This document shows, piece after piece, positions 10,875 to 50,780 of a stretch of DNA of 51,453 nt. Below the pieces are notes generated by a model. It searched no databases. It was given only the letters and a program-made list of their open reading frames with translations, and had not been told where the DNA came from. The stretch lies in contig KZ538006.1 in NCBI GenBank assembly GCA_000934665.2, forward strand, positions 372,001 through 423,453, in the 5' to 3' direction. This stretch comes from Catajapyx aquilonaris. Its lineage: Eukaryota. The stretch's first letter is position 1; each line of letters opens with the position of its first letter. The position numbers and the translations under genes are program-made.

Positions 10875-13800
10875 ATGCCAGCCACCCAGAAGATGTTCTT
10901 GTCTGGCCTGCGACGCGGGTCATCCGGGATCTTCCGGGAGCAGAGGACCAAGCTTTTGGCCGATGGTAAGGAATACATGTCGACAAATGTGTTCTGACAT
11001 GGGCAATCTTGCTGCGTGTTGCATGTACGAGCGGGGATGTGCAGCAACGAGCATCGTTGAGCGATGAAATAGTTTCAGAGTGAAACGACATTCGCCCCAA
11101 ACATCGCTCAGCGAATCTCTCACATATGTAAACGTCGCCTAAAGCATCTGAAATGTATTGAGTATCTCTGAAAACCAAGAGCATGCCACTGTATGAAGGG
11201 AGGGATATTTTTAGGCATGGCAGGCCTAAGCCTCCCTAAATGGCCGCGAGGCTGGTAGAAGATTTTTAGAGCAGGCTGGATCGCACTGGAAGGGGATATA
11301 GGTCTAACCGAGGGCATTCAGCCCTATGGGGGAATTCAGACTGGGACGAATACCTACTGAATGTTTGGGTCAAAGTCTTTATAAGTTTTGCACTTGTGAA
11401 GAGTGCTATTTTTGAGCTGAGGTGCTTGCTCTGGCAGAAGCTTTTGGTTTTTTTTTTTCACAGTTGAAGGATTCCAACTTATCAACTAGCTGTATTTAAT
11501 GCTGGTACTAGGTACAAGTTTGTGCGGTTCATGCAGAAGTGGGTGGGAAGATGTCCAAAATTGTTTGCAAATGGGAAGGTGCAGGGGTGAGTGAACAATA
11601 CAAAAGAAAAGTGACTCAGCAGTGAGTCAATGTTTTAGGAATCGAGTCCCAACTCCCCTACCAGAGTAGGGCAAAATCATGTTAACAATAGCGGAGTCGG
11701 ACAAAATAAACACAATGTAAAAATCAATATGATCAGTATGATTTGGCTTGTACATTTCACAATCAATACTTAAATTTATTTTCAAGGCCGCCTTGGGACA
11801 CCCCACTGCTTTCTTTATTCTGCTATTTCTTATTTCAAGTTCCCTTATCAAAGCTGTAAAGACGATAATGCATTATTAAGAAGTTATAAATTGCTTATCA
11901 GATTTATTGGTGACGTGGATTAGAAAATGCTGCTCAGTGACGAGGAACTTTGGACTTGCGTGTGCCCAGATTTGCTACAGCGGATGTGTTTATCTGCGTG
12001 GAAAATTTCACACTGTGTTACTTTTTTTTAAAGAGTGTAAAGATGAGATGCATGAAAAAAGTAATTAGCACCACACGTTGTCTATTTGCCTTAGTAAGGA
12101 GTTGCTGTTACCGGTTATGTGGCACATATTTGGAGGGTACACAGTATGGTCTTTGTGAAAAATTGTTTATGACGAAATAAATAATGTAGAGTAGGCCTTA
12201 GGTTAATATATCATTAAATTGTAAAAATGCTACCATTTCGTGCAATAGGGCCAGTGGTGTAATATGCCAACTGTGTGTGAAGCAGACAGCTGTTAAGGCC
12301 TCTCATTGCATTATGAGTAAAATAATGTGCCCCCGATTCAAATTCCCCTTTTTTGTCATTTCAGGAGAGAAGGGCCCGAACCATGGGCCATCCCCGGTCA
12401 AACCAGGTGTTGACTACATCAACCAGGGTGAAGAGGATCAGATGGTCAGTATTTTTAGTGACTGTCCATTTGATTGTCGTTTAATGATGAAATGTTTTCC
12501 AGGAAATTTATGGCTACTGCCAGAGTACCCTGTACACATTTGTCACGTGGGTGTGCATCGTGGGCACAGCTGGACTCCTGCGGCTGGTGTTCCACTGGTA
12601 TCCACATTTGATGCTGTATGCCACTCACAAGCAGTGCAAACTGGACAAGGCCGAGAAGATCCTTGCTATTGTGAGTATTGCAACAATAAGAATTGAAGCA
12701 GTGACTAATATGATAATTACCAAATTATATTTTACTGAAATGGTGCACATTAGCAAAAGTTGGGCTTGTGGACATTCCACCCACTTTTTGCTGTCATAAA
12801 AAAATGCTTGAATGTGGGTTACATGTAATTAAGTAATTTTTTCCATAGTGTGATATTTGTTTTGTGTTAAAGTCGGAAATGGGCATGTTCCGAGAGTGAC
12901 ATTAGTTGAAGATTAAATGTGATAGCTGCCCACTAATAGGATTATAAGAACCTTGTTAAAAAATTGTTTTGGAGATAGAGCTAGTCATGGCTCTTTGTAA
13001 ACACCATTTGGGGATTGAAAACATTTGTTTCATACCACAGGAGAACTGTACTTGAGTGACCAGCTTTTGAATGAATGCATGTTTTTGAAACCTTGTACCT
13101 TGCAGGAGAATTACCAGGACAAGCATTTGAAGTATCATGTCAAGGATATCTTCACTCTGTCAACTGATGACATGGAGTGAGTATCGTTTTTATCGCAATC
13201 ACAGTTTTGGAGCGATATAGTAAATGATGTGTATTTTCAGGAGTTTGATCCAGGTTAATAAAGGGATAAAACCTGACGATGAGATATGGTCTGAACAGAA
13301 GGTGGATGAACTGAAGGCAGCATGCAGTGGAAAGCTCTCAATTCCAGGCCCAAATGGCGAGTACCAAAGTAAGCAAATTGCATTACTAATTAGGACTAAG
13401 CCTCTTTTGTCTGGTCACCCTGGCTAACTAGATTACGGTAGCTTGAATAACCAACTACTGCATTTCCAGCCGTGTCGGGTGTCAACATGTTCCAATGCAA
13501 GAAGCTCAAGTATCTCTGGAATGAAGAGCTGGGCGAGTTCCACAAGTTGCAGGGATTGGACCATCACGTGTCTACTGCCACCTTGCACATGCACCAAGGA
13601 CTCAATTTTGTCGAGCAGGCACAAAGGTAAGTTTCACACATCTCTCATTTGCCAGCCCCTGACGGAATTTAAACTCATCATCCCAAATGTTATTCCAGGC
13701 GGTTGGTTTATGGTGGCAACGAGATAACGGTGGAAGTGAAGGGGGTGGTGAAACTCCTCTTCCTGGAGATCCTGAATCCATTTTATGTTTTCCAAATCTA

Positions 13801-16800
13801 CTCCATCTGCCTCTGGTTTGGCTACCAGTATTACTACTATGCCACTGCCATCATCATCATGTCTTTGTGGGGTATTGTGTCCACCATAATTCAGACCCGC
13901 CAGGTGAGTTGCATTGTGTATTCATTGAAATGGTTTGACTTAACTGTCCAGGGTAGTCAGACCACTTTGATGTTTGCAGCCATAATTTTGAATGAAGACA
14001 GTTGTTTCAATCATTGATGGGCATGCACAAACTTGTGTTCTTGTATACTATGCAATGAATTTGTACTTAACATTGTTTCTGAACAGTTAACGGTGCCGTA
14101 TTTCAATTTGGTGCAATGCATACTTATGCTAGTTTAAGAATGAGAACATAAGGTAGCATGCAATGTGGTAAGAGTTATTCAGAACTGTCTGACAGGTGAC
14201 CTGCATTAATGATCTAATTATAAATATTTATAAGCCATGCTTTTGTACATTTCGAAGTATATATTATGTTTTAATGCATGTCACCTTCGAGGTAAGGTTC
14301 CATGGTCATGCAATCATCCTGGATGGCAACAATCAAGTTATGTGAAACATTAAAAAATGGTGGAGTTGGATAGTATCTTTTGATGTAGGTTATGCTGTTG
14401 ATCTGAAGTATTGTTGTTTTATAGGGATTATAATGTGAGCCTTTTGGGCCTACCTGTCTGCAACCTGAGGGAAGTGCAGGGCATGAAAGGGTGGACAGAG
14501 GCAATGGCTAGCCCCTTTTTCGTGCAGGCAGGCTGGCCCAAAGCCCACATACAGGGTGTTTCAACTTTTTTGTCCGAACAGTTCTCGGAAATATTGCACT
14601 AAGTAAGCTGCTACTTTCTAAGCAGTGTATGCCACTTCAACCCAAGATTCGCAGGGAATATTGCCCATTCCTCCGACAAACTGGTTGCAAGTCACTGCTT
14701 ACAAAGTAGCAGCTTATGGTGCAATATTTCCAATAACTGTTCAGACAAAAAAGTTAAAACACCCTGTATAGTGATAATGTTATGTAATCTCACCACATAT
14801 TTGTTCGTTGATCATTAGTCTTCAGCTCTATTGGTAATTTGCCACCGGGTGATGCCTTGGAAAAGCCAGTTTCGGATCTAATACTACATGTTTTTATTAC
14901 TTATGTTCCAGTTTCTAAACTATCATGACATGGTATGTCTACTTGTGTGCTGTAGTAACATTGGTTTAAGTTGGAACGGAAACTTGTACATAACCTTACA
15001 CTTGTCAGCTAATTTTTTAAATGCAGACTTTTCCCTACATAGTTATTTACTGTTACGGTAGAAAAAAAGTTTTTATTTGGATACTTTGATCCAAATGAAT
15101 GTTTTCTGTTATGCCTGCTTCTGCAGAGAGAAAAGTCAGTTTAGAAAAATAGAGCAGTGTAGGGCATGATGTGTGCCCATCTAATAATTGTTAAACGTAA
15201 GGGCTCGAGTGAAAAAATGCCCAAAGTGCCAGTTCAAAATTATGGAACCAAGGATGATCTGACTCACCTGCAGTTTTTTTTTTTTTTTTGGGTGAAATGT
15301 ATGACTTGGCGACTTTATCCTGTAGGCCAGTTCTGGCAAAGTGAGAGAGAGGGTTGGTGAGAGATATGAGAGAATGTTCATCACGTGATACATCAAGGGA
15401 CACCTTCCCCTCCCTCTTCCTGGAGGTGCTGCGTGTGGTGGTGAATCAGCGAGCAGCCAACCCATTTATTTCAAGGGCCAGCCTCGAGTGTCTTCTATTC
15501 TTCGAAACATTTCCCAGGCTGCAGCCTTTCTTTTGCAACCCTGCGGCCAAAGGCCTGATTTATCAACAGGTGGAGGAAGTTCAACTGGAACTTATTTTTA
15601 TCTTCTCTTCCAAGTTGTCTTTTACATTTTTGATGGGTGTTCTGTGGATTTGTATCGTTCATATCTACAGCTTATCTTACACAACTTGATTGCCTTTTAG
15701 AGTTCGTAGGATGAAAAGTACTATTTTATTACAATCACTTATTTCACTTGCAGGTATCATGGTATAGATGGCTACGCAATTGTACATTACCTACTCTTGA
15801 AAACATGCGGATATGATATATACAAATTTTTACTGCCTTTCAGAACACCTTGTTTTAAAATAAACTTGAGTTTTTATATATTCTTCGTTGTTGTTGGCAG
15901 GTGTTGTGGGTGGCAATGGTATTAATTTGCAGCATTATTTATGCCAGAAAGTAGAGTACCACACCCACCCTGTGGAACATGTGCCTTCTAGATTTTCTTC
16001 CCCTTTTTCTACTTTCTATATATCGTGATTACTTGTAGCAGTGAATACATGCTTAATGTAAGGGCAGGTGAAGGTGTAATATACTTACTCTGTGTTGCTG
16101 GTAATACAAAGACATTTAATAACACGTAATAGTACCCTAATATATTCTTTTGGAATTTTGCGAAATTATCGGTTGCAAACTCAAATTATCACAGTATGAT
16201 GTAATGACATTTTAATTATCAGTTAATGCTGTGGGGAAATTTTGAAATTCAGTGATTCTTGAGTTCGACAATGTCATGATGTGATGTCAAATTAAGCATG
16301 CATTCTCTGCTCAGCACATTGTGAAATTTAACTTTCAGCTTATTTATCTTTGTTGGGTGTAATTATATGAAGTTGCATGTTGTTGGAAGGTATTTTTCCA
16401 TGTGTTTCAATATAGAAAAATAAGAAAAATATTGTTGAAAACAGGGCCTAATTCGTTTCAAATACTTACGTGTTTCAAGAGTTGGGTCACATCCATATGG
16501 ATAAAATCTTTCTGGACGCTAATTTTTACTTGCCTGTTGCTTTGCATTCAATTTTTGCTGTGAGTACATGCATAGTTGGAGAACCCATTAATGGGCTTTT
16601 CTGCTGAACGTCTGATTACACTCAATAATACAGGCGAGGAAACAGGAATGAGTGGAAGTCAGTGACTGTTAAGTTTTTACTGACAAGGATGTGAGCTAAC
16701 TTATGAAATATGTGGTGTATAAATATCAGAAGACTAGTATGTATTTTATGTGGAGCAAATGGGATACTCCACTGTTATAAGTAGTGTTGGCATGCATTGG

Positions 16801-19800
16801 CAGGCAAATCTATTCTGCCTGTGGAGTCATGAGCTAATCTGATGCTGACTTTTCACAGAATCAGAAGAACCTTCGTAGCACCATCCATTCTTCCGATGTT
16901 GTGACTGTGTGGCTTGGTGGAGATAGCTACGAGACCATGGCAACAGAGCAACTGGTTCCCGGGGATGTAATAGTGATCCCTTCCCATGGATGCATCATGC
17001 ATTGTGATGCTGCTCTGCTTAAGGGCAACTGCATCGTCAATGAGAGCATGCTGACTGGGGAGAGTGTCCCAGTCACAAAGACTCCTCTTCCAAACCAGCC
17101 AGACATGATGTTTGACTCAAAGGAGCATGCCCGTAACACTTTGTTTTGTGGGACCAAAGTCATTCAGACCCGATTCTATGGCAGAGAGAAAGTTAAGGCA
17201 GTGGTCCTGCGAACTGGATTCCTCACGTCCAAAGGGAACCTGGTTCGTTCGATCATGTATCCTCCCCCAGTTGACTTCAAATTTGAGCGGGATTCCTACC
17301 GCTTTGTTGGAGTGCTGGCTGGCATTGCTGCCATTGGTTTCATCTACACTGTGGTCACCAAGGCGAGTACTCTGGCCTACATAATATTCTCTTTTATACC
17401 TGTATCCACTTCCACAAAATGCCTGGAAGTGATGTGACATTCCATGAAGCAAGTCTGATCATTACATGTTGTTTCCCTTGACAGTATTTTCGTGGCATAG
17501 CCGGATCCATCATTGCCCTTGAATCTCTGGACTTGATCACCATAGTGGTTCCCCCTGCTCTGCCTGCAGCCATGACAGTTGGTCGCTACTATGCTCAGAG
17601 CCGACTGAAGCAAAAGAACATTTACTGCATTAGTCCCAGAGCCATTAATGTTGCTGGGTCGATAGATTGTGTCTGCTTTGATAAGGTGAATAATTCTCAG
17701 AATTTTTGTAAATGTATCATTGCTAACTTTCTGTCCTCTGATGTTGTTAGACTGGAACCCTTACTGAAGATGGGCTGGACATGTGGGGAGTAGTTCCAGT
17801 TCATAATCAGAAGTTCCAGGTTCCAGTCAAGACAATGGAGACCCTCCCGAAGGAAGCCCTGTTGCTGGGGATGGCCTCCTGCCACTCCCTGACTGTCATT
17901 GGAGGGGAGATCTGTGGGGACCCCTTGGACCTCAAGATGTTTGAGTCAACTGGCTGGGTGCTGGAGGAGCCCAATGTGGACGACTCAGCCAAGTTCGACA
18001 TCATCACCCCAACTGTGGTCAAGCCCCAGAGACCAGATGTGGTGGAGAGTGCAGAGAATGTGGAGCTAGCTCCACATCTGGAGGTGGGGATAATTCGTCA
18101 GTTCCCCTTCTCGTCTGGATTGCAACGTATGAGTGTGATCACTCGTACACTTGGTGCACCTCACTTTGAACTCTACTGCAAGGGATCGCCTGAGATGATA
18201 GCTTCCCTCTGCCATCAGAACACTGTGCCATCTAATTTTGAATCGGTAAGGGCAGACTTGTCTTTGTAGACAGTCATAGAGAATGAGTAGTTTGACTAGT
18301 CCTTTTTTTGGAGTGTAAGGTGTGTATGCTTATTAATTAACTTTTGTATTTCCTTCAGGTGCTGCAGGAATACACACAGGAAGGTTATCGTGTGATTGCA
18401 GTGGGCTACCGTGTGCTGGGTAAGGCAAGTTACGCTAAGGTGCAGCGACTAGCCCGTGAAGAAGTTGAGCGTGACCTCATCTTTTCTGGTCTGTTGGTGA
18501 TGGAGAATCGGTTGAAGCCTGAGACCCCTGCTGCCCTTCAGACCCTGAGAGAGGCCTGTGTGCGCAGTGTTATGGTGACTGGCGACAACATGCTGACAGC
18601 CATCAGCGTTGCCAGAGACTGCGATATGGTTGGGCCAGGAGAGCGTGTCGTAATTGTCAACGCAGAGCCTGAGACCATTGGCAAACCTGCCTCACTGCAG
18701 TTCAGCCATGCAGAGGCACCCCTCCCTAAAAATGGGTCGGTGATATCAGACCTGACCGTGCTTAGTGGTGACCTTACTATGTTGACAGACATCCGCATTG
18801 ATTTTGATACCACTGAGCGGTATCATTTTGCAGTGTCTGGCAAATCATTTGCAGTCCTGCGTGATTCCTTTCCATCACTGCTTCCTCGAATTGCAGTCCG
18901 AGGCACTGTATTTGCCAGGATGAGTCCAGACCAGAAGCAACAGTTGGTGCAGGCACTCCAGGACCTGGGGTACTGCGTTGGTATGTGTGGTGACGGTGCT
19001 AATGACTGCGGAGCCCTGAAGGCAGCACATGCAGGCGTGTCACTGTCTGAAGCGGAGGCATCAGTAGCGTCTCCATTCACATCAAAGGAGAATAACATCT
19101 CATGTGTTCCAGAGCTGATCCGTGAAGGACGTGCTGCTCTGGTCACTTCCTTTGGCATCTTCAAGTATATGGCAGCATACAGTCTCACGCAGTTTGTGAC
19201 TGTCATTATGCTCTACAGCATTGACTCTAACCTCACAGACCCCCAGTTCCTCTACATTGACTTGTTCCTGATCACCCTATTCGCCTTCTTCTTTGGGAAG
19301 ACTTGTGCATATAGTGGGACACTTGTGCCACGACCACCTGAAGCCAGTTTAACAACTGTAGCACCCGTGGTCTCTATCTTGCTCCAGACAGTGGTGGTTA
19401 TTGTGTTCCAGGCAGCTGCCTTTGTTCTGGTGCAGTACCAGCCATGGTTCATTCCATTCGTTGCCAATGGTGGTGATGCAGATGAGGATCACGGGTGTCA
19501 CCAGAATTATATATTATTTGCAGTGTCATCCTTCCAGTACATAATCCTAGCAGCTGTGTTTTCAAAGGGAAAGCCATATAGACGCGAGATGTGGTCCAAT
19601 GGTGGACTCCTAGGTTCAATGCTGGCAATGACTGTATTCACATGCTACCTTATCATATACCCATGCTCATGGCTGGTGCATCAATTCACATTTGTGCTCC
19701 CGCCTGATGTACTCTTCCGTGCTGCTTTAGTTGGAATTGCAGTGCTCAATTTGGCACTAAGCTTAGGTGCAGAGATTTTGGCCGACCGAATTGGCGAGTG

Positions 19801-20179
19801 TTGCTGGAAGCGCAGTGGTAGTAAAGGTCGGGAGTATATGGCCGTGGAGGATGAGATGTGTCGGTCTCCAGAGTGGCCGCCAATATCACCAGCCCCAGAA
19901 GCCCCAGTTCCACCTCACTGCCAGGCTCTCCCAGCAGTGCGTCCGTCCATGGAACTTAAGGTGGACCTTGTGTCGCCGGAGAAGCGTCGGAATGGACGGG
20001 TTCCGGAACTAGCATTGAATGCTGGGTGTCTCCTGGTACGTGCTGCTGGCATTGATGTGCTGGGAGAGGCCATCAGGCAGGAGGTGGCTGGAAGAGGAGG
20101 CGTGACCTTGCTCAACGGTCATGTCGCTAGTACCCCCATAGGGGATGAGCTTGAGCTCAGGTCACCGTCTAGCTCCTGA
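10875..20179 (+). CDS. ATP13A3: P5B-type cation/polyamine-transporting P-type ATPase (ATP13A2-5 family, ATP13A3-like), ~1306 aa, 11 exons
   Basis: Exons 10875-10965 (upstream in-frame ATG also at 10842), 12365-12444, 12503-12670, 13106-13176, 13241-13368, 13470-13626, 13699-13903, 16859-17362, 17485-17685, 17751-18245, 18359-20179; all phases consistent. Motifs: NESMLTGES (A-domain), PPALP in TM4 (P5B signature; P5A has PPELP), DK|TGTLT phosphorylation motif split by an intron, [41 protein letters not shown]. Confidence 0.95.
14433..14550. mobile_element. Old hairpin/MITE-like element abutting the TA-flanked MITE
   Basis: ATGTGAGCCTTTTGGGCCTACCTGTCTGCA pairs imperfectly with TGCAGGCAGGCTGGCCCAAAGCCCACAT. 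Confidence 0.5.
14552..14766. mobile_element. Tc1/mariner-type MITE (215 bp), TA target-site duplication, in ATPase intron 7
   Basis: TA|CAGGGTGTTTCAACTTTTTTGTCCGAACAGTT ... AACTGTTCAGACAAAAAAGTTAAAACACCCTG|TA. Inverted similarity continues inward (GGAAATATTGCAC/GTGCAATATTTCC, TAAGCTGCTACTTT/AAAGTAGCAGCTTA). Confidence 0.88.
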
Positions 20180-24342: not shown

Positions 24343-32995
<8,653 letters not shown>

Positions 32996-35851
32996 CCTGC
33001 ACCGAACAAGTGCTGGGAGTCATCGCTTTAGCAAGAAAGAGAGAGAGACCAGAAGCACGTTTTGAGAGACAGAAGGCGAGTTTGTACCTGTGGGCCAATT
33101 TTCTTGGTGTGTGCGTGTGTTACATGTATGAATGTTAAAAGTTGCCTGTTGTATATTTTTTGGTAGGAGCGTTTTTTGAGTGCTCCACTGCATTCCTGTT
33201 TCAGACGTCACGTATTTTTTTTGACGATAACTTATTCTTGTTAACATATGTGTCGTATTGGGCAAGCAGCCTTGGGGTTGCTTCTGTGTGTACAAGGAAA
33301 TTACCTTAATTTCAGTCTGATGTCATGATAAAACCAAATACGTTAAAGTTGCATCAACACATTCAAGAGTCGAACTGATGAAGCATCTCGCATTCAAATC
33401 TCATAGGAAGACAGACGAGGATGTAGTTGTATTTACTGCCACAAACTGTTTCGCATTCTATGCCAGACTACTCATCAAATTCATAATTCAGACTATTAAA
33501 ATATTTTTGGTATGGTACTTTTAACTTGGATGCATTTTGAGCAAGTACTGTACGGAGTTGCATGGTGCTAACACATTGTTACGAGAGTCTTTGCTGGTTG
33601 TTGGGAAGTTGTTGACTTGTTGGAAATTGGTAGCTTAATTTTTAATACTGCGGCAGCTTTACAGGGCAACAACCAATTAGCATGAGCTACTTAAATGACA
33701 GAGATTGCCTTGGAATTGAGCAATTCACTGTCACAATCCTTGCTTATGTAATGACATTAGACTGAAATTCAGGTGACGTGCCTGAAGTAAATATTACTTT
33801 TTCTTACTCTCCAGCTTCATGGTCCATGGCCACATCAATGCAAGGTGGGACAAAATAGCCAATGATTATTGTCTTAATATGGAAACCGTACTGAGATAAC
33901 AGTTATATCCTCTGAAAGTGCATGTTATAATATGTAACCTGTTGTAGTTAGTGTTATCTGTTTTGTTGCCGCAAGACGTGGGCCCCCTGCTCGAGTAGAA
34001 GGAAGAAAAAAAAATTGTATGGCAGTCAGTATTATTGCAGCTCAAAATGTTTGTATGGATTGGGTGTGTCTCCTCTCTTAAAAAGTCCCCGAGTGAATGC
34101 CATGTGTGAGGCATACGTGAGCTGGGAGAATCTCACTTTTACTAGAGCTTTATCTTTACTCGCTATATGTCATTCTGTTTTCCACCAATTCCATCACGTA
34201 TGTATGTAAAACTGGAGTGTATTTTTTGCTCGCTTCTTGAGTGCTTCCATAGGCTACTAGTTAACGAAAGGTCCAGTTGAAGACTGGAACACCAAAGATG
34301 AGATATGCAAACTGTAATAGATATCATGACATTGCAGTGTTGCAACAAAGAAGATAACCTGTTGGCAGTTGTTGCGGTTTTTAATTGTCAGAATATAATA
34401 CAATGTTAGGATTAAAGGAGAATGCGAGTGGGCCACAAGCATGAAAGTGATAAATAAGCCACTAAGTTGACGAGGAGCGTTGGATAAGTTGCACTTATTT
34501 GTTAGTAACGAATACGGGCTACGGGTTAGCACTGTTTGCTCCGAATAGTCTATGCAACTTATCATTGCTCCAAGTACTTAAAATGTAGTGGTATGGAATT
34601 TGAGGTAACGCAGGGATAAGTCATTATTCTTCCACTGTGATGGCTGACTCTGTCATTAACAAGGACTGTAGTCTGCATTGTGTATTTATGAATATTTATA
34701 AAGCAGTCTGACGACATATACGTGTGCTTTTATTTTCTTCATGTGATGATTGTGGGGCGGCTTGTGGGTTTGTACACTTCAAATGTGTGTCTCTTGTGTT
34801 CGTATTAGAACAAGAAAATTGGTGGGATGGAGTTTCCTTATTTTTTTCGTTGCTGTCATAAATGACATTGTGGGTTTGAGGGAAAGGAGCACATGGTTGT
34901 ACTTAATAACTTCACTGGGAATGGGTCGCACACTTGAGTAGTGTCTCTTGGTTCATCGGGCCGAGTTTCTCATCATGTCGTGGGAAAGCTGGAACGACTT
35001 CTTGCTGCCAGTCATTTGTCAACTTTAGAGCAGTTTGCACCATTTTGATAGCATTTTTGCACGGTTTTCTCTTGAAAACATCTTGCGCCTGCTTCCTCCT
35101 CCCTGCGTGGCCTGCCACAGCCGCACCAACAATAACGGAGGGATGCGTCCAGCAATCATGTGAACTGGAGCAAATGATGTGGGAAATTCTTGCAAGGGAA
35201 AGCGAAGGCTACTCCTTGATGTCCTGCCCACAACCATTACCTTTTCATGTTATTGTTGTGCTGTCAACTGGGAGCTTGCGGTGTGTGGGTCAAGTGTAGC
35301 CAGAGTTCAAGACCGATGTGAGTGCCACAAGTCAAACATTGCAGGAAGTGCAATTTTGTGGTTTCTTTGCCTTGGTTGTAGAAATGAGAACTGGGTGTGT
35401 ACTGGTCAGCCAAATTTTTTTTAAATACTTTTCACCAATTAGGGTCCAATGCGGAATGTGAAAACCGGCCCATCTCCAATGGGTGTTAATTTACACCTCC
35501 ATCCAAGTCATAAAGGTTGTGACAACTTTCCCAGTAAACTGTCTCAAACTGGTAGCACAATCTACACGTCTTTACCACACTTGAAGGGTGGGACGAAGAA
35601 AAAGTGGAGAAGGTGGTGAAGGGGGTGCACTTTCTCTTCCTGCTGGACACTGGCCATCATGACCATCATCATGTGCAATGCAAGCTAAAAGGCGAGCATG
35701 GGTGAAAATGGTTGGTGTGTGGGAGTGGTGGAGGAGGTTTGGTGGTAGGGAGAGATGAGAGTCGAGGAGGCGGAACCACCAACTTTTTGGAGGGCAATTC
35801 AGTCCGTGCTGGCAGGTTAGGAAAGGCAGAAGGTTGAATCCAGCACAGGAC

Positions 35852-38800
35852 ATGGGAATGAAGAGAGGTCGAGGAACATACGTGGATCCGTGGGACCTGG
35901 AGAATGTGGCGTACATACGTCGACAGTCCATATGTCAGTTCCAGCCTTTCCAGCCTGAGCCCACCAGCTTGTCCACCAGCGGAGTGACTGGCTCTGAAGA
36001 GGAGGATTCTCCAGTGGCTGATGTGGAGGAAGCAGCCTTTTCCAACCCAAGGTATGAGCCTGTGGACCACTACGGATTGTACGTGGACATGGCACCATCG
36101 CCCACCAGCTGCGGACCATCGTCGTTTCGTCCAAGAAGCATCCTCACGTCGCTCACAGGTACGACAATCCAATTCATTGTTGACTCTTTTTTTTCCAGCT
36201 ACAACATAATTGTTGACAAGAAATTTGCCGCGCATTGTTGCGTAGAACCCAGTTGTTCACGGGATGTTTAAAAAAAAGTGATTTAGAGTGCAGTAATCAC
36301 CTAGGTGATTAATTATGGGATTCATCGGTCCAAAAATTTGAGTTAACAGGGCTTGAAGGAACCGGGAGAAATGAATTTAACTGGTTTAAGTACCGATAAG
36401 TCTGGACGAAAATGAGTTTGCTGTGGCTGATAGTTCAGTTTCATTACATGTGAGTGAGAAAAATGAACTCGATTTTATTACAACTTCGTACTGAGTATTG
36501 AGCTGAAATCATGTCGTTAATAACTGAATTAAGCGCTTCAAAATTCAGAAATTCGTGGCTAATCATTCTGTATAATATTATTGCAAATTTGTTAAAATAT
36601 GCACCAACAAGTTGACCGCTGATTAGGAATTTATGTCGACGGTTCAGGTCCAGTTACAGCTATGAAAAAGTGGATTTATAGCTCTTATTAATGTTGGCAA
36701 AAAAATTAACCAAACAATAGCAATAGCTCGAACGGTGCCACTGGGGCCTGAAAGGTCACATTTGCATATTGTCCGAGATATTTTTATTTGAAAGTATGGA
36801 CATCTTGTCCACGGATTCCTTAGATCCCACAGCTTTCTTTCACCACACCCTGTACATGTTACTCGATCGTTTCGTACACATCACGATCATTCTTGCAGCA
36901 AGAACCTTCCGCAACCCGTACCACCACCAGTAAATTCCCTTTTTTTTTTAAAAAAAAAAAAACGTTTTTCAAACGTCCCGAACCAGAAACGGAAACCGCA
37001 GCATTTTTAACCCCCATCCTCCAAAAAAAGAAGAAGAGAAGAAGCCCAAGTATGTCACGCCATATTTCACCTCATTACATAACAGTTTGACCTGCCTCCA
37101 CACTTCCAGAAGTTATTAATACAGTACATTCAGTACCGTATGTTTCCAACAGTTTTTCAGTCATTTTTTTTGGCGTGAAAAGATGCACAAAGATTTTTGT
37201 GACCAAAAAGTTCACGAAGGAGGTCGACCCGCTACACTTTTAAAAATGTGGTCAAGGTCTTAAGCTGGACAACACCTACGAGAGAGAAAAAAAAATCAGA
37301 GCTGAACGTGCGCACGTGCGAAATGCACTTATCCCACTTACGCATGCTTAGCCATGTGCTTTGCGTTTTAATATTTACGACAACTATTGTTCGACACAAC
37401 TGAAGCACATTTTTTGTTTTTTTTTGGGGGGGGGAGGTAAAAAATTTCCTTTAAAAGTGGTTCATTGGATTTGACAAAATTTCGCACGCCAATTAAAAAA
37501 TATGCAGGTCCGTTAGGATTTTACACTGGTTTTTCGTACGGGAACTTAAAAAAGCGAAATTGGATGATTGTGAAGTCATGCGTTAAGATGATAATTTCTC
37601 CGATGCATTTTTTTTTTCGCCAACTGTGTGGCTATACGGTACAGTTGGCTGGAAAATTCCTTTCACTTCTTTTTCGGAGCCAAAAAATGGTGACCACAGG
37701 TGACGCCCTCAAATATTTCATTATTTGAAATATTTAACCCTACATATGTTAAATTCACGGAAATAAGTACAGGTCATACTTTGCAAGAAAAAAGAAAGTG
37801 TTGAGGAAAGATGATCCACACCCATAGTAAGTACACACTTTAGAACAATGTTTTGGTTGCGTGCCATGAGCCTTGTAAGGTCGTTGGATGGGTGAGGCTC
37901 GAAATGGACCTAAACTTCCTATTTGACCAAAAAAATGTGCAAAAAATTTTCTCTCCGGTTAGGTGCATATTCGCATATCCGGTCATCTACCTTCACACAC
38001 ACGCATGATGGATGCTTTCTTTTTTCCCACGGTTTGATAGCTGGAAAATCTCACTGACCTTTGCTCAGTTTAATGGACAGTTGCTAGTAAGGACGATTCA
38101 TGCTTAGACCCCTCAGATCTCGTAAAAAAAAGTGAAGGTTCCCGTTATGGGGGTGTGCGTGCAGAATTTGATAAAATGGACTGCTGGCTCTATTCCACCA
38201 TAAGAAACATGTAAAAGGAGGAATTGTGGGTTGAGAAGGAAGTGCAATTTTTGCTTGGCTTTTTTTTGTCTACTGGAGAGGCACAACAATACGGGGTTTT
38301 TTTTTTCCTCAGGAATGTTCAGAATGGTTTTGCTACACTGATCATGAATATCGGATGAGCGGGTTATGCGCAAAATGTGAATAAAGGGATGAAACTATTC
38401 GTAGTTTACACATATGTTACATAGTAGCAACCGAGTGCGCACCCACACTCGCGCAGCTCCATAATGCCAACCGAGTGTAGGCTGCGCGAACTATAGTGCG
38501 CACTTGGTGTCGCCCATAAAAAATCATCTACCGGGTTATTTATCATACAATGTATTGTCTTCTAATTGCTGGGAGTCACCTGCGAACAATAACCATTATG
38601 CAAGTAAAGTCCTGGCATTCAACAGTTGATGATGACAATATTGTTCGCGCAATTCATGTGAAGTGTTTGGATGGCACTCTGTGCCGCGATAACGAGTGAA
38701 AGCTCGGGTTGTGTCCAAGGGTGTTCGGAAAACAATAAATCGGAAAAGGGGGGGCTGCTGGCCGCGGATTCCCTCCACTGAATTCGGGTGCTGGCCCCCA

Positions 38801-44056: not shown

Positions 44057-44857
44057 CTAGTGACTGCCACCGAAAGAGCTGTGGTCATCTCCGCCTCCGG
44101 AGGATGAGAACCCGCCAATGTGGTGTCCACCGTCGTCTCCTCCTCCGCTGTGGTGCTCCTCCTTGATGAAGACTGGTACCTTCTGGTAGACGGTGTATGG
44201 CACCTTATGCACCACTGGTATCTTGTGCACCACTGGCACCTTGTGGTACTCTGGGATCTTGTGCACCACAGGAACGTGCTTGACCTCAGGGACCTTAACA
44301 ACGTAAGGGATCTTGTGGACCTCTGGCACCTTCACCACCACATGGTGTATCTTCTTCTTCGGTTCTGGAGCTTCCTGCAAATCAAGTTCGCTTTACATTA
44401 TTTCCTTTCACTCACCCTGAAGCAAAGCAGGAACAAGACATTTTTTTTTTTTTTGGGGGGGGGGGGGTGGTTATAATTACTGAGTAGAAAGCTGCACTTA
44501 CGTACGACTCCTGCTTGACCTCATGGCCGAAGCTGTACTCATGGTGACCATGCTTCTGTCCGGACACTTTGGCGTACCCGAACCCATGCTCCTTCTTGTA
44601 CCCATCCTTATGGCCATCCCCGAAACTCTCGCCCTTATGCGATATGTAGAACCCATGCTCGTACTTGAAGTCATCACCTGCTTGGCACCATCCAGCAACT
44701 CCAAGGAGCAGAAGCGCCGATATAATTGTCTGCAACAAATAGACAACAATTATTCTCAACAATCACACGACTGTTGCTCACTGATGCGACCTCAACATCG
44801 AAGAATGAAATCAAGAAATGTTAGACCCAGGTCAGTGATACTTACAAAAGAGGCCAT
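44057..44857 (-). CDS. Secreted His/Gly-rich, Val-Pro-repeat low-complexity protein, probably cuticular, ~185 aa, 3 exons
   Basis: Exons 44857-44846 (MASF; upstream ATG at 44866), 44729-44502, 44374-44057; GTAAGT donors, CAG acceptors, all phase 0. Signal peptide TIISALLLLGVAGWCQA; repeats KVPEVH/KIPYVV/KVPEVK/HVPVVH/KIPEYH/KVPVVH; Gly-Ser-Asp-His tail. No R&R chitin-binding consensus seen. Confidence 0.88.
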
Positions 44858-44931: not shown

Positions 44932-47480
44932 CCGGGAATTCGCTCGGATTCCAGTTTTCCCAAAAGGAAAGTGGCCATTGGACTTCCACACACTCTAGCT
45001 CACCCCCCCCCCCTTCCCCCTACAACCCCCAACTTCCTCCCACACCTCCTGGAGATTCCATCGGACTCTTATTCTGCCCCGTAACTCTCAGTGTGGAAAT
45101 CCACCTGTTTTCACTATCTGCATTGCCTGATGCTCTGTTTTTATTATTTTCTTTCCGTCGCAAGAGGCTAAATGGGAGGTAACGCAACCGAGACTTTGGA
45201 CATGCAGAGGCCGCGGGAACTGAAAACGAGGAACTGCTCGCCATTTTATGATTCTTTGCTGCTGCATACTATAATGACTGATCCTGAAAGGGAAACTCTT
45301 TCATTATACACTGGAGCTTGGACTGTTTAGGTTAGACACACTATTAGTTACATTCAGTTCCGATGGGAAGAAGCTTAAGGCCGACGATCTTCAAGAAAAC
45401 CGGATTTTTACTTTTTCTGAAGGTAAAGTAGCCTGTGTCATTATAGGCTTTCTTATCCTGGCATTGTGCCTTTGATTCTTCAGTGGTGAGGATATGGAGT
45501 TTTGTCTGATTGGTGTAAATTACAATATAAGTACAATACTACATCAGTTGTTATTAAAACATATTATACGATCATATATTTTGAAATAGGCTATAGGGCT
45601 CATATTTGTCCGAATAACTAATATAATCAGCTAATTTGATTATTAATGTGAATTCGTTTCATAATTTATTCCAGGGTTTGCATGGAGCACTTTAAATAAA
45701 GAAATAAATATTCATTGCAGTTGGCAATATTAATAATGAGAGTGAAATGAAGATATGCGAATCATTTCTCTAATGTGACTACCGGCAAGGTTGTAAGTAG
45801 GGCAGCCAGGTGTTAATTGCTCCCCCTCTAAAACATTACGATTATTAAGTAATGGGGAAACTCAATGACACGACAATCATTTTTCGAAAGGGGTCATAGG
45901 TTAATCAGCAGAAGAGACATAAAGTAATACCTGATGCAAACAATGTGCATAGTAGAAAGCATGAGATTTCGCTTCTTAATTGTTGGGTAAGAGGAAGTGT
46001 GTGTTTGGTACTCACAAACTGTAGGTGCGAAAAGCGGAATAATAATTTCGTGTGTACAAATACAGTTGGCGATGAAGAATTTTTAGAACCAGTTCACGAC
46101 TATACAAAAAAATATTATATATAAAACGAGAGAAGGTTTTTCTTGTTGTTTCTTCAGCTTGCTGTTGTCCGAGTGATGGACAAGTTGGGTCAACCCCTCT
46201 TTTGGCTTGGTTTACAACTGAATGGGAGTACCCCTTATTCACCCAGCACCACGGGAGGGTGACTTTGGGTTATCTCGCCATCACCAGTCACACCTCGAAA
46301 GTCTTCCCATCAATTTTGGTGCCATTGGTGACACCAGTGACCAATCATTGTATTTTTGGGTGGAATTTTTCTTAACTACTTGAAGGCAAATAGAGAGAAA
46401 AACCAGTTTTTTTTATTACAATCATTAAAATAAGTCGAGTGTTACCTATCAGTAGCTTTAGAATGAAAGTTATGGCGGAGCAGTAGTTGAACTCGACCTT
46501 AATAAATTTTCATTCGGTTTTTATTGCATTAAATCGCTTCCGTAACTGGCTAACGAGGGAAAGCGGACTTTGCAATTAGCGCGTATTACTCTTCTTGAGA
46601 AGGAATTTGGTACTGGCGGAAAATTATAGTTGCCAGCCTAGCAATGATGTAAAACAATTGGGTTCAACTATAGTTTTTATATAGGCTTGTACCCCCGATA
46701 AACTCGGGAAAATTCCGGCTAGAACTAGTCGATAAAAAATTACAAAAAAAAGTGTAACCTGCTACAAATTTCACTAACTGACGAACCTGAACGCGAATAA
46801 TAATAATAATGATAAATCTATGTCCAGTTTGTAATTTGAAGTCAATTGCGAAGATAATTTACGAGCTGTTTACCTTTCGACAAACCAGTAACTGGCTGAG
46901 TATAACTGAAGGTAAATTTACTGTTGGAAGGTTGACTCTGGAGAGACTCCGGGACAAATGAGCCAGCAAACGGATCTGTCGTTCAACCCCTTAGAAGCAC
47001 TTGAACTTTGTCCAGAAGATCTAAAAAAAAGCACTCTTGGTAGGGGTTATTCGGGCTTTCCTTTTGTGCCTTTAATCCAAGCTTGTCAAGTGAGAAGAAC
47101 TGACTCTGTTTCAAAGACAGATTGCTCCAATCCATCCAGCATGATTTATGAGCAGTATACCTGTAGAGGTCCCACCAAACTATACTGGGCAGGAGGGACA
47201 ATGATGACGATGATGACGATGGACACGCGAGTTTTTGGTGGGGACAAGAAACACCTTTTGTAAGTGACACCCTGGGGTATGGTCCAAGGTCTTGCACCTG
47301 GGGATGGCTTTTTCCTCAGCTGGAAGCCAAAGCTGGGCTTTTGGCAGATTTAGGATGGGTGGAGGAAGCAGAAGAAGAAGGACTGGTGTTGGGGAGGGGT
47401 TGAGGAGGGGGGGGGGGCGAGGTCATATTACTAGGGAGTTGTCCGAGCAAGGTCAGTTCGAATCTGCCTGCGACCAGAAG

Positions 47481-49287
47481 ATGTTCCTTCGGTGGTGTGT
47501 CCTCTTCCTGATGTGTCCTCTGGTCAGGGCTGGGTACCTTTGGGGATGGTTGCTGCCTCCTCCGGGTGTGGCTGAGGAGAACCAGGTCATGCTTCCCAAG
47601 CACCTGACCTTTCAAGAGGTGGAGAGGTTGAGGAGGCTGCAGATTGATCAGAAGGTAAGAAGAAAAAAAAATGTTAGCCGGAGCGTGAAATTCGGTTGGA
47701 AGCATTGAACCTATCGGTACTTGCTTTCACTAAGTTCCGTTCACGTGCTCACAAACCATCCAGAGTTATTAAATGGCAGAGGATATGCGTAGTTTCTCAA
47801 ATATTGTGACGTCACTGGAAAAATACATTGTAATCTGGGAACAAGTTTGGAGGGTTCAACGAGTTTGTTTGGGAAAGTGAAGCACATAAGAGGCTGAACC
47901 GATCATTATCATTTGTTTGGGCTTTTGTAACGTGTGTGACAACAACTGCGTGTGCTGTCAGTGTGTTGCACAGAGACAATAAGATGAGGATTAGAGATTT
48001 TGCATCCGTCATTAATTTGTAATATTGCGTTAGAAGTAGACGTTAATTGTAATATAGGAATAACCAACACCAACTGAGTCACATTTTGTTATAAATTAAG
48101 TTAGGCAATGTGCACATACTTTCTGATTGTGAAAACACCCCTTAATATTTGAGAAAAAAAAAGTTGATAATAATAGAAGTAATAAGAGCATCAGCAAAGT
48201 GACCACGGTTCGTGAGTTACACGTTTGCATGAGCACGAAAACCAGAGGTGAAATCAGAGCGCTGAGGCAACACCTTTGAAGTGAGGAACATGAGATAATA
48301 CATCTTCAGGCGAAACCTAAGTAGGTGTTAGGCGGAAGTTCACACCTTGTTTGCTCTTTTCCTGGGTCCACAATGAATCATGCTCCCAGCAAATATTGCA
48401 CATCGATTTGGAACAGATTCTGACCGATTTTACTTTTCAGAGTGGACCTTGCAAGAACCCGAGGGACTGTCCGAGAGGCCAGTTTTGTGATCACCATTAT
48501 GGGGTGTGCCAAGAGTTGCTGAGACAAGACCAGTTCTGCAGGGAAGACTACATGTGCCAGAAGGGGATGTGGTGTCTTTTTGGTCGATGCCAGCCTCGAG
48601 TACGCCATGGATCAGAAGGTACAATACATTACAACCAAAACTATGAACCCACTATCCGGAAAAATACGAAGCAATAAATAACCAGCCAGTAAACTATTGT
48701 ATAATCTCCGAGGCACGAGTACAGTAAATCATTGACAGCAATCCACTGCCTGGAGGCAAAGTATTGCGTGCAGGCTGATAAAACTTCCTGTTTTTCCAAC
48801 AGCTTCATTTTTCACGGAATATCCCTCCGGCCGTTAACGTCTTCATTAACCTACTGATGATGCGACGACCGCAAGACACGGATTAACACTCACTTTTTTA
48901 TATATATTTACGACAGGTTCTAGATGCCAGAAAGGCTCAGATTGCGACCGAGGAATGTGCTGCGCTCGACTACATGGAGAGAAACTGTGCCAGAGGCTTC
49001 TGACCAAGGGCCAACGATGTCATGTGTCTCCTGGGGGTCTGCACTACAGCCTCAATGAACTATGCCCTTGCGACAGAGGACTAACCTGCACTGCACTTCC
49101 TAGGTACAAACATGTCGTCGTTAATTAAGTTTTTGAATATCTACTGACTTGTGAGTGGTGCATTGACAATCACTTTGAGATTACTCGTGTTGTATTTTAA
49201 CTCATTTTTCTCGTATATTGTAGGCTGAACAGGACCCACGAACAGCAGCTGTCTCCAATAGACTACCTCCGATGCTCTCCGGTGTGA
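47481..49287 (+). CDS. dkk3: Dickkopf-family (Dkk3-like) secreted cysteine-rich protein, ~200 aa, 4 exons
   Basis: Exons 47481-47654, 48441-48618, 48917-49103, 49224-49287; phases 0, 1, 2 consistent. Signal peptide MFLRWCVLFLMCPLVRA. CRD1 CKNPRDCPRGQFCDHHYGVC..FCREDYMCQKGMWCLFGRC. Colipase-fold CRD2 CQKGSDCDRGMCCARLHGEKLC..GQRC..LCPCDRGLTC..YLRC with all 10 Cys. Inr TCAGTT at ~47454. Subfamily label is tentative. Confidence 0.85.
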
Positions 49288-50365
49288 CCAGTTGATTCGA
49301 CGAAAAATTATGTCCCATTGACTCTCTTTGTTCATTACATGTACATATTGTGTTAATACATTGCAGCTGTAAATGGAAAAATAGCTTTATTTGACTGATT
49401 TTTGCTCATTTTGGAAATAATTTTTTTTGTCATGTTGAGATAAAGAGCAAAAAGAAAGTAATGGTTTAATTTATTACTTCCTTACATTTTTCAGGACATT
49501 TCAGTAGGTTAGGAAAATACTTGTTCACATGTTCAGCTGCTTATAAAAAGCCCAGGTTTATTGTTACATATTGCTTCTTATTATAAGCGTATTAGTGTGT
49601 TATTCTGTTCTATTATTTCAGTCAGTTATAACAATTATTTATAATGTGAAAAACCCTTATGAAATTAACCCTCGTGCATATTACTGTACAGTACTGATCA
49701 CTTCCTGTAAAATGTATAACAGGCTCCCAGAGTAAGAGGGCTATCTATATTCACAAATATGCACAAAACATATGCCAAGATAAAGCTGCAGGTGCAAAAA
49801 CCACAGACTTCATTATTTTATAAACATAGAAATTAGAGGACAAAATACGTTGCATTAGAATAATGTATCCAGGTGAAGGCTTGAGGGACTGGCTTTGTAA
49901 CAAAAAGATACTCTAAAGTCAAGATTTCATCTCAATTCTTAATTCTGCCAAAAGGAAGAGTCAGTGCTGGTGCATCACTGCGGCGGTCCTCCAATGTCCA
50001 CCAAAAGGAAACATTGTAAACATTATTTTGCTTTTATTTCAGAGATTAATGATTGGCTTTGTAAATATTGTCATCATTGACAACATTTTGATTGCATTCT
50101 AATAATGATTTTCAAACAACCCAGTTCACAACTGCATCAGCTACTATCAATCTCGTTGAACCATTCGCAATGCTTAATTGTAACCAGGAACCTCCCATTA
50201 AATGTGCATAATAAATGTTTCAAACAGTCAGCATTATTATGTTTTAACTGATCCACGTTCATATTTTTAGATATATATATTTTTTTTTACAATTTTGTAC
50301 TCGTCAACACTACAGGCGCCCTTCCTTTACGATAAGTACATGCTGGAGAGAGTGTCAGTATCGAG

Positions 50366-50766: not shown

Positions 50767-50780
50767 NNNNNNNNNNNNNN
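50767..50780. other. Assembly gap (14 N) inside a G-run
   Basis: Ns in the sequence. Confidence 0.99.

Follow-up and report, generated by a model that had tools for sequence, protein, structure and literature searches.

Does the gene at positions 47481-49287 (+ strand) of the window, the whole stretch of 51,453 nucleotides that was analysed, encode a Dickkopf (Dkk) protein, in which animal lineage does it reside, and through which partner might its product act? The gene has four exons, separated by GT-AG introns with pyrimidine-rich acceptors. Its spliced coding sequence of 603 nt encodes 200 residues plus a stop codon and contains no internal stops. The initial annotation had described a complete gene with a signal peptide and two Cys-rich domains (CRD1 and CRD2), and the intact 200-codon frame and consensus splice sites agree with this. 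Judged by the consensus sites, the continuity of the frame and the homology to relatives, the three splice junctions look intact as modelled. Exon 1 is coding from 47481 to 47654 (+) and ends in a phase-0 donor. It encodes a predicted signal peptide (residues 1-17/18; 47481-47534, +), indicated by hydropathy and by small residues at the equivalent position in relatives, then, where the mature protein is predicted to start, the aromatic motif YLWGWLL (47535-47555, +), which is conserved family-wide, and a poorly conserved spacer. Exon 2 (48441-48618, +; phase-1 donor) holds CRD1 (C62-C108, 48450-48590), identified by Pfam PF04706 and by its Cys spacing, and most of the linker. The core of CRD2 lies in exon 3 (48917-49103, +; phase-2 donor) with nine Cys (C121-C175), the CCARLHG loop and the GGLxYSLNxxCPC loop. 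The coding part of exon 4 (49224-49287, +) contributes an N-glycosylation sequon (NRT), the tenth CRD2 Cys (C197, 49273-49275) and the stop codon; a similar terminal Cys motif was found in many relatives.

In the flanks, an initiator-like element TCAGTT (47453-47458, +), which we take to be the arthropod Inr motif, lies 28 bases 5′ of the ATG and is a possible transcription start, weakly supported because this motif has a density of 0.68 per kb across the window. ATTAAA and AATAAA (50197-50215, +), about 0.9 kb 3′ of the stop codon, are candidate polyadenylation signals. A gap of 14 N within G runs is present at 50767-50780, 1.5 kb 3′ of the gene. When the host genome itself was searched, exon 3 gave one match from two candidates and PF04706 one match from 30, so that the gene looks single-copy.

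The spliced translation confirmed the CRD2 features as first described, with ten Cys (the last one from exon 4), CCARLHG and the late CPC. The C6-C7 loop measures 14 residues. As had also been noted, an N-terminal NxI(R/K) motif is absent, the sole N-x-[IV] being NQVM at residue 34. When exon 3 was compared with Pfam, it matched DIKK1-2-4_C-subdom1 (E 6.7e-5) and Prokineticin (PF06607, E 0.0064), both below the cut-off, and it had no match to DIKK1-2-4_C-subdom2. Against PDB chains the same exon matched Dkk1 and Dkk2 with E values of 1.4e-6 to 5.1e-6, compared to 2e-4 for Bv8 and 7.7e-3 for MIT1, and a profile from 56 family members separated Dkk1 (7e-13) further from Bv8 (4e-4). The structure model of the Priapulus member (mean pLDDT 82.8) retrieved Dkk1, Dkk1 and Dkk2 as the top three Foldseek hits. 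CRD2 identity to relatives reaches 67%. A word-index search with exon 3 alone gave one candidate and no match, and a PF06607 search of the host genome gave no matches, as did the control of that search. The placement with Dickkopf rather than with prokineticins or astakines, as originally proposed, is upheld by the two CRDs, the Dickkopf_N match above the cut-off, and the PDB and profile matches that favour Dkk1.

CRD1 contains 8 Cys with the spacing 5-5-6-9-5-5-4 and is followed by an inter-domain linker of 12 residues. Exon 2 matches Pfam Dickkopf_N (PF04706) with E 3.6e-10 and 40.4 bits (cut-off 25). When the same exon was searched in the ESM Atlas, only low-score myxobacterial Cys-rich clusters were returned (top score 0.83). 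The CRD1 disulfides of Dkk4 are given as C41-C53, C47-C63, C66-C80, C73-C85 and C79-C90 (PMC6078440). The Cys matching C66 and C80 are both missing from our CRD1, and therefore one entire disulfide has been lost, namely the one that has no counterpart in CRD2. To place this in the family, relatives were collected by phmmer with exon 3. At E<=0.001 this search yielded 87 representatives (62 of them at <=1e-10): 49 with complete CRD1 and CRD2, 30 with an incomplete CRD1 and 8 without a matching CRD2. Among the 49 complete proteins, CRD1 has 8 Cys in 40 and 10 Cys in 9, and the linker is 12 residues long in 40. The named 10-Cys forms are all cnidarian (Hydractinia, Paramuricea, Acropora). An eight-Cys CRD1 common to Nematostella and protostome Dkks is described by De Oliveira et al. 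2019 (PMC6425005). The 8-Cys CRD1 is thus the norm of the family, already published and not peculiar to this genome. The reduced CRD1 and the short linker that had been singled out at first are indeed present, but both are standard for a published subfamily (PMC6425005, PMC11414264).

This subfamily was named dkk5, as a third one, by Vellutini et al. 2024 (PMC11414264), with members from Lingula, Priapulus, Branchiostoma belcheri and Nematostella. The same proteins are labelled dkk1/2/4 in PMC6425005, and the name is contested. Our matches from these four species, which we equate with the dkk5 proteins of PMC11414264 by species and pattern rather than by accession, have the Cys spacing of the Catajapyx protein (in CRD1 exactly), its linker and a CCAxxHG loop. 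CCxxxHG occurs in 69 of the 87 representatives and a Dkk1-type FW in two. A CRD2 HMM built from 11 non-arthropod invertebrates, including the same four, scored the Catajapyx protein at 88.5 bits; two Dkk1/2/4-type proteins reached 48.2 and 38.8 bits and two prokineticin-like ones 33.0 and 24.9. Most members scored 99-108 bits and a divergent barnacle member 41.0, and it seems that CRD1 and CRD2 of our protein evolve somewhat faster than those of most Dkk5 members. In a CRD1+CRD2 tree of 69 rows, which contained no Dkk1/2/4 or deuterostome Dkk3, Daphnia and malacostracans formed a group with our protein (SH-aLRT 81, flagged for long branches), and this group fell inside a 56-row clade that held all named bilaterians (SH-aLRT 99). 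Vertebrate Dkk3 is absent from all our trees. In a CRD2-only tree, a short alignment of 62 columns, three AU tests rejected nothing, with p-AU 0.32 for a grouping with Dkk1/2/4-type proteins and 0.45 for one with prokineticin-like proteins. Taken together, the sequence comparisons make it very likely that the gene is the single ortholog of Dkk5, that is, of the protostome-type Dkk also called 'Dkk3-like'. It is assigned neither to Dkk1/2/4 nor to Dkk3 proper, because it lacks the 10-Cys CRD1, the soggy N-terminus and the CRD2 insertion of Dkk3 as well as the features of Dkk1/2/4. It is a new member of a published and barely studied subfamily.

The host had been called an apparent arthropod, and both the mitochondrial gene order and the tree of a neighbouring gene agree with this. 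The arrangement cox1-trnL2-cox2 is the gene order of crustaceans and hexapods. One mitochondrial-type contig reads cox1-trnL(taa)-cox2-trnK-trnD and another nad2-W-C-Y-cox1; diplurans have the mitochondrial order common to most crustaceans and hexapods (PMC3914688). In mitochondrial-type contig L002 (G000:C5905) cox1 is broken over several frames, either because the contig is a nuclear copy or because it was assembled wrongly. The ATP13A3 that neighbours the Dkk gene reaches no more than 54% identity among the matches listed. In a 17-row IQ-TREE it fell within Pancrustacea (100/99) and outside six winged insects, and AU tests rejected a grouping with Malacostraca (p-AU 0.0096) or with Myriapoda (1e-5). 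FastTree joined it to two springtails (90; 15 of 47 rows left out), a fork that the 17-row IQ-TREE left open; the host trees comprised no branchiopod, copepod or remipede. This P5B ATPase gene (ATP13A3-like; 12379-20179, +) adjoins an ACK/TNK2-like tyrosine kinase gene (27260-36271, +). Human ATP13A3 and TNK2 both map to 3q29, and the pair in the window may be an old linkage.

The genome also contains an odorant-binding-protein (OBP) gene (E 1.8e-7), and the OBP family is reported only from hexapods, with remipedes unexamined (PMC5850775). Just downstream of the OBP exon (L014 912-2031, -; G000:C485) lies a second OBP-like Cys pattern without a Pfam match, possibly marking tandem OBP genes. 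The only odorant-receptor candidate among 15 scored, a 7tm_6 match, is a gustatory receptor; diplurans and springtails are reported to lack odorant receptors (PMC6938034). An Osiris-type DUF1676 match was found in the genome, and an 18S start pattern had no match there. From these data the host is likely, with good confidence, to be a non-pterygote hexapod within the pancrustaceans. Elsewhere in the window, a small secreted His/Gly-rich gene (44057-44762, -) with V-H-K-V-P-type repeats and no Pfam match probably encodes a cuticle-type protein.

We next asked how members are distributed across animals. Named arthropod members come from branchiopod, malacostracan, ostracod and barnacle crustaceans, a millipede, a tick, mites and a horseshoe crab, and others from a tardigrade, nematodes, a priapulid, a brachiopod, a nemertean, cephalopods, a sea cucumber and amphioxus. 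Sequences of Daphnia pulex and turkey stand in the 2019 supplement (PMC6425005) as hypothetical proteins. The initial annotation had proposed a little-studied ecdysozoan Dkk; the subfamily is barely studied, as suggested, but databases hold ecdysozoan members in plenty, and sequences from Daphnia and Trichinella are already in the 2019 supplement. Vertebrate members from Rhinoraja, Spea, Xyrauchen, Dromaius and Apteryx scored 100-107 bits on the HMM built from invertebrates only. In the ESM Atlas, the clusters closest to the frog protein are three chordate ones (57-72 members), separate from those named Dkk3a, Dkk4 and DKK1. A Xenopus gene 'Dkkx' (Ding et al. 2017) may be the frog member. A loss of dkk5 in vertebrates is stated in PMC11414264; the skate, teleost, frog and bird proteins, given their scores, contradict this statement. 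The nearest listed non-chordate cluster to the frog protein is an arthropod 'ITG-like peptide' cluster (122 members, score 0.81), and ITG/prohormone-3 may be a distant Dkk relative retained in insects. Penaeid shrimps have many near-identical 'dkk3-like' records, 33 of them in one Penaeus cluster and several on one chromosome-size record; they have an altered N-terminal motif and are possibly a tandem expansion.

No hexapod and no mammal was found among the named members (30 of the 87 representatives were looked up, 20 with a name, and 28 of 52 profile matches carried names). A search of this database with ATP13A3 yielded many insects along with two springtails; the unnamed matches could still include hexapods. 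The Catajapyx aquilonaris gene apparently extends Dkk into Hexapoda, and with a Dkk in a hexapod the absence from flies would be a loss within hexapods.

Besides the vertebrate members, the aromatic motif goes beyond what had been annotated initially. YLWGWLL follows immediately after the predicted cleavage site, and related motifs are present in emu (YLWAWMY), skate (YIWAWIL), Priapulus (YIWSWAW), Ixodes (VWSWAL) and Nematostella (VFGWLL). A strict pattern, devised after the sequences had been viewed, was found in 21 of 35 named proteins, compared to 0.4 expected from shuffling the same regions; of the 14 proteins that it misses, several are near variants or come from truncated models. A second pattern occurred in 50 of the 87 proteins, a set containing near-identical sequences, and in one of 49 control stretches. 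The motif is weaker in penaeids and Oratosquilla, and absent from Hydractinia and two unnamed 10-Cys proteins. The Dkk literature retrieved by searches on Dkk distribution, rather than on the motif, contained no mention of it in the text seen. An uncleaved membrane anchor that includes the motif was considered and set aside: charged or small residues of cleavage type separate the motif from the short hydrophobic core in many relatives. In the Priapulus model the tip region (residues 21-30) has a pLDDT of 64 and most of the CRD region >90. It is reasonably likely that the tip is a binding determinant.

We then compared CRD2 with the known interfaces of Dkk1, in which we take H204/F205/W206, F234 and R236 to be the LRP6-facing residues. 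In the alignment H204/F205/W206 are replaced by L/H/G, F234 by N, R236 by L, K226 by P and R191 by K, and the Arg at R203 is kept. The LRP6-facing residues are thus not retained, and the reading of CCARHFW as CCARLHG in the initial annotation extends to F234/R236, which read N/L. In Dkk1, K226 contacts Kremen (PMC5014086). The altered positions are near-invariant in the family (G in 73/74, H in 65/74 and N in 63/74), and since they are fixed family-wide in another state, they point to a different conserved partner surface. The genome encodes an Arrow/LRP5-6 protein made up of four propeller-EGF units, an LDLa repeat and a transmembrane segment and bearing a PPPSP motif. Its gene lies almost wholly in one open frame of 1563 codons (L009 1739-6427; G000:C1679), with only one LDLa recognized by Pfam. 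Kremen was not seen in an exon-by-exon search of the fragmented assembly, in which 14 Kringle matches were found and no contig had both Kringle and WSC; from the frames read, the two WSC matches resemble xylosyltransferase and polycystin-type genes. Prediction of a complex between the exon-3 CRD2 and propeller 3-EGF of the host Arrow scored 0.00 twice, with the alignment unused and the partner fold uncertain, and weighs neither for nor against binding. The earlier suggestion of an action independent of Arrow was overstated: Arrow is in the genome, and amphiDkk3 is reported, in a paper title, to inhibit Wnt/β-catenin.

That report is the title of Onai et al. 2012. In the brachiopod, dkk5 is described as expressed in the anterior ectoderm, like sfrp1/2/5 (PMC11414264). 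On account of these two reports a role in the Wnt pathway is favoured. We propose that the gene encodes a secreted disulfide-rich ligand. Once the leader is removed, a short N-terminal tip rich in Trp would be exposed; a flexible tether would connect this tip to the CRD1-CRD2 unit, whose two domains are joined by the fixed 12-residue linker. We infer that it would be secreted from the embryonic anterior ectoderm and would damp Wnt/β-catenin signalling there. The Dkk1-type clamp on LRP6 propeller 3 and Kremen would not be used; the protein would instead use conserved surfaces of its own, namely the HGE loop, the GGLxYSLN loop and the aromatic tip. For the tip, our foremost guess is that it fills a hydrophobic site of some component of the Wnt pathway, for example a propeller face of Arrow or the Wnt/Frizzled lipid site. 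We lean, with modest confidence, towards such an anterior Wnt dampener without the Dkk1 clamp, placing it before an orphan ligand and that in turn before Dkk1-like binding. The amphiDkk3 protein has no aromatic tip, and therefore its reported activity needs no tip and may not transfer to our protein.

It is also possible, though rather unlikely, that the protein is a Wnt-independent orphan ligand with a receptor of its own, whose free aromatic N-terminus would be the activating tip while the CRDs give affinity. In prokineticins the AVIT N-terminus is an activating tip. Consistent with such a ligand, from anthozoans to birds the motif occupies the predicted start of the mature protein, with emu matching the Catajapyx AGYLWxW, the tip of the Priapulus model is not confidently folded, and the CRD2 loops are near-invariant at positions unlike Dkk1. 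The failure to see Kremen would fit as well, but this search was made exon by exon in a fragmented assembly. The anterior expression in the brachiopod alongside Wnt antagonists (PMC11414264), and the Wnt inhibition reported in the title for the tip-less amphiDkk3 isoform, argue against this account. A broader form of it, which we put forward tentatively and consider doubtful, makes Dkk5 an orphan ligand of ancient origin that persisted from anthozoans to wingless hexapods, skates, teleosts, frogs and birds and was separately lost in winged insects, C. elegans and mammals, with the Trp-rich mature N-terminus engaging a partner other than the LRP6/Kremen sites of Dkk1. If true, hexapods would have their first member in this gene, by which the loss in insects would be dated, and the repeated losses could lead to the receptor by phylogenetic profiling.

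Less probable still is that CRD2 acts like Dkk1 and blocks Wnt directly by binding a β-propeller of Arrow through a remodelled equivalent surface. The closest solved folds are Dkk1 CRD2 in LRP6 complexes, an Arrow with four propeller-EGF units is encoded in the genome, and Arg is kept at R203 and Lys stands at R191. However, the substitutions at H204/F205/W206, F234, R236 and K226 and the absence of NxI(R/K) speak against it, and the failure of Dkk3 to bind LRP6 has been attributed to lost interface residues (PMC6078440). That the gene encodes a colipase-fold protein of the prokineticin/astakine or venom type, or is a relic without expression, is very improbable. The faint Prokineticin match of exon 3 and the CRD2-only test, which did not reject such a placement, are opposed by the two-domain layout, Dickkopf_N above the cut-off, the family profile's preference for Dkk1, the intact frame, the consensus splice sites and a CRD2 up to 67% identical to relatives.

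The N-terminal motif and the conserved CRD2 loops are direct targets for mutagenesis. Whether Wnt-Dkk antagonism survives in protostomes is raised as a question in PMC6425005, and it becomes testable in Daphnia, ticks, spiders or fish. What gives the locus its value is a host that is probably a hexapod, the retention of the subfamily in vertebrates and the motif at the N-terminus; the subfamily was named only in 2024 and has almost no functional data.

Among known systems, the closest are the Dkk5 or protostome 'dkk1/2/4' members, such as Daphnia XP_057371686, Penaeus XP_069986341, Lingula XP_013407542 and Trichinella AEH58051. The Catajapyx protein has the same signal peptide, CRD1 spacing, 12-residue linker, 14-residue C6-C7 loop, N-terminal aromatic motif, and CCARxHG and GGLxYSLNxxCPC loops, and differs in host lineage. 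The amphiDkk3 protein (AEG80153, Branchiostoma floridae) has the same CRD1/CRD2 pattern, and in it a TGF-beta-receptor-2-like N-terminal domain (Pfam E 0.0014, below the cut-off) replaces the aromatic tip, which another amphioxus model, XP_002602111, does bear. Branchiostoma members thus carry either this domain or the tip, perhaps through alternative first exons. By its pattern, what has been studied under the name 'amphiDkk3' appears to be Dkk5, a further point that the initial annotation did not cover.

Vertebrate Dkk3 shares the late CPC, as had been recognized at the outset, and additionally the 12-residue linker and, by eye in the PMC6425005 supplement, a Gly at the position of Dkk1 W206. 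It differs in its 10-Cys CRD1, its long soggy-type N-terminus and an LDLITWE-type CRD2 insertion, given as L249-E255 (PMC10606412). Dkk1/2/4 proteins have two CRDs and a colipase-fold 10-Cys CRD2 as well, and 3S2K is the closest solved structure. Unlike them, the Catajapyx protein has no CCARHFW, NxI(R/K), CRD1 C66-C80 disulfide, long flexible linker or DIKK1-2-4_C-subdom2 match. Prokineticins, astakines, MIT1 and colipase have a colipase-type Cys pattern as in its CRD2 but are single-domain proteins; prokineticins start with AVIT, unlike our protein. The similarity of this whole group to it is at least eight orders of magnitude weaker than that of Dkk1.
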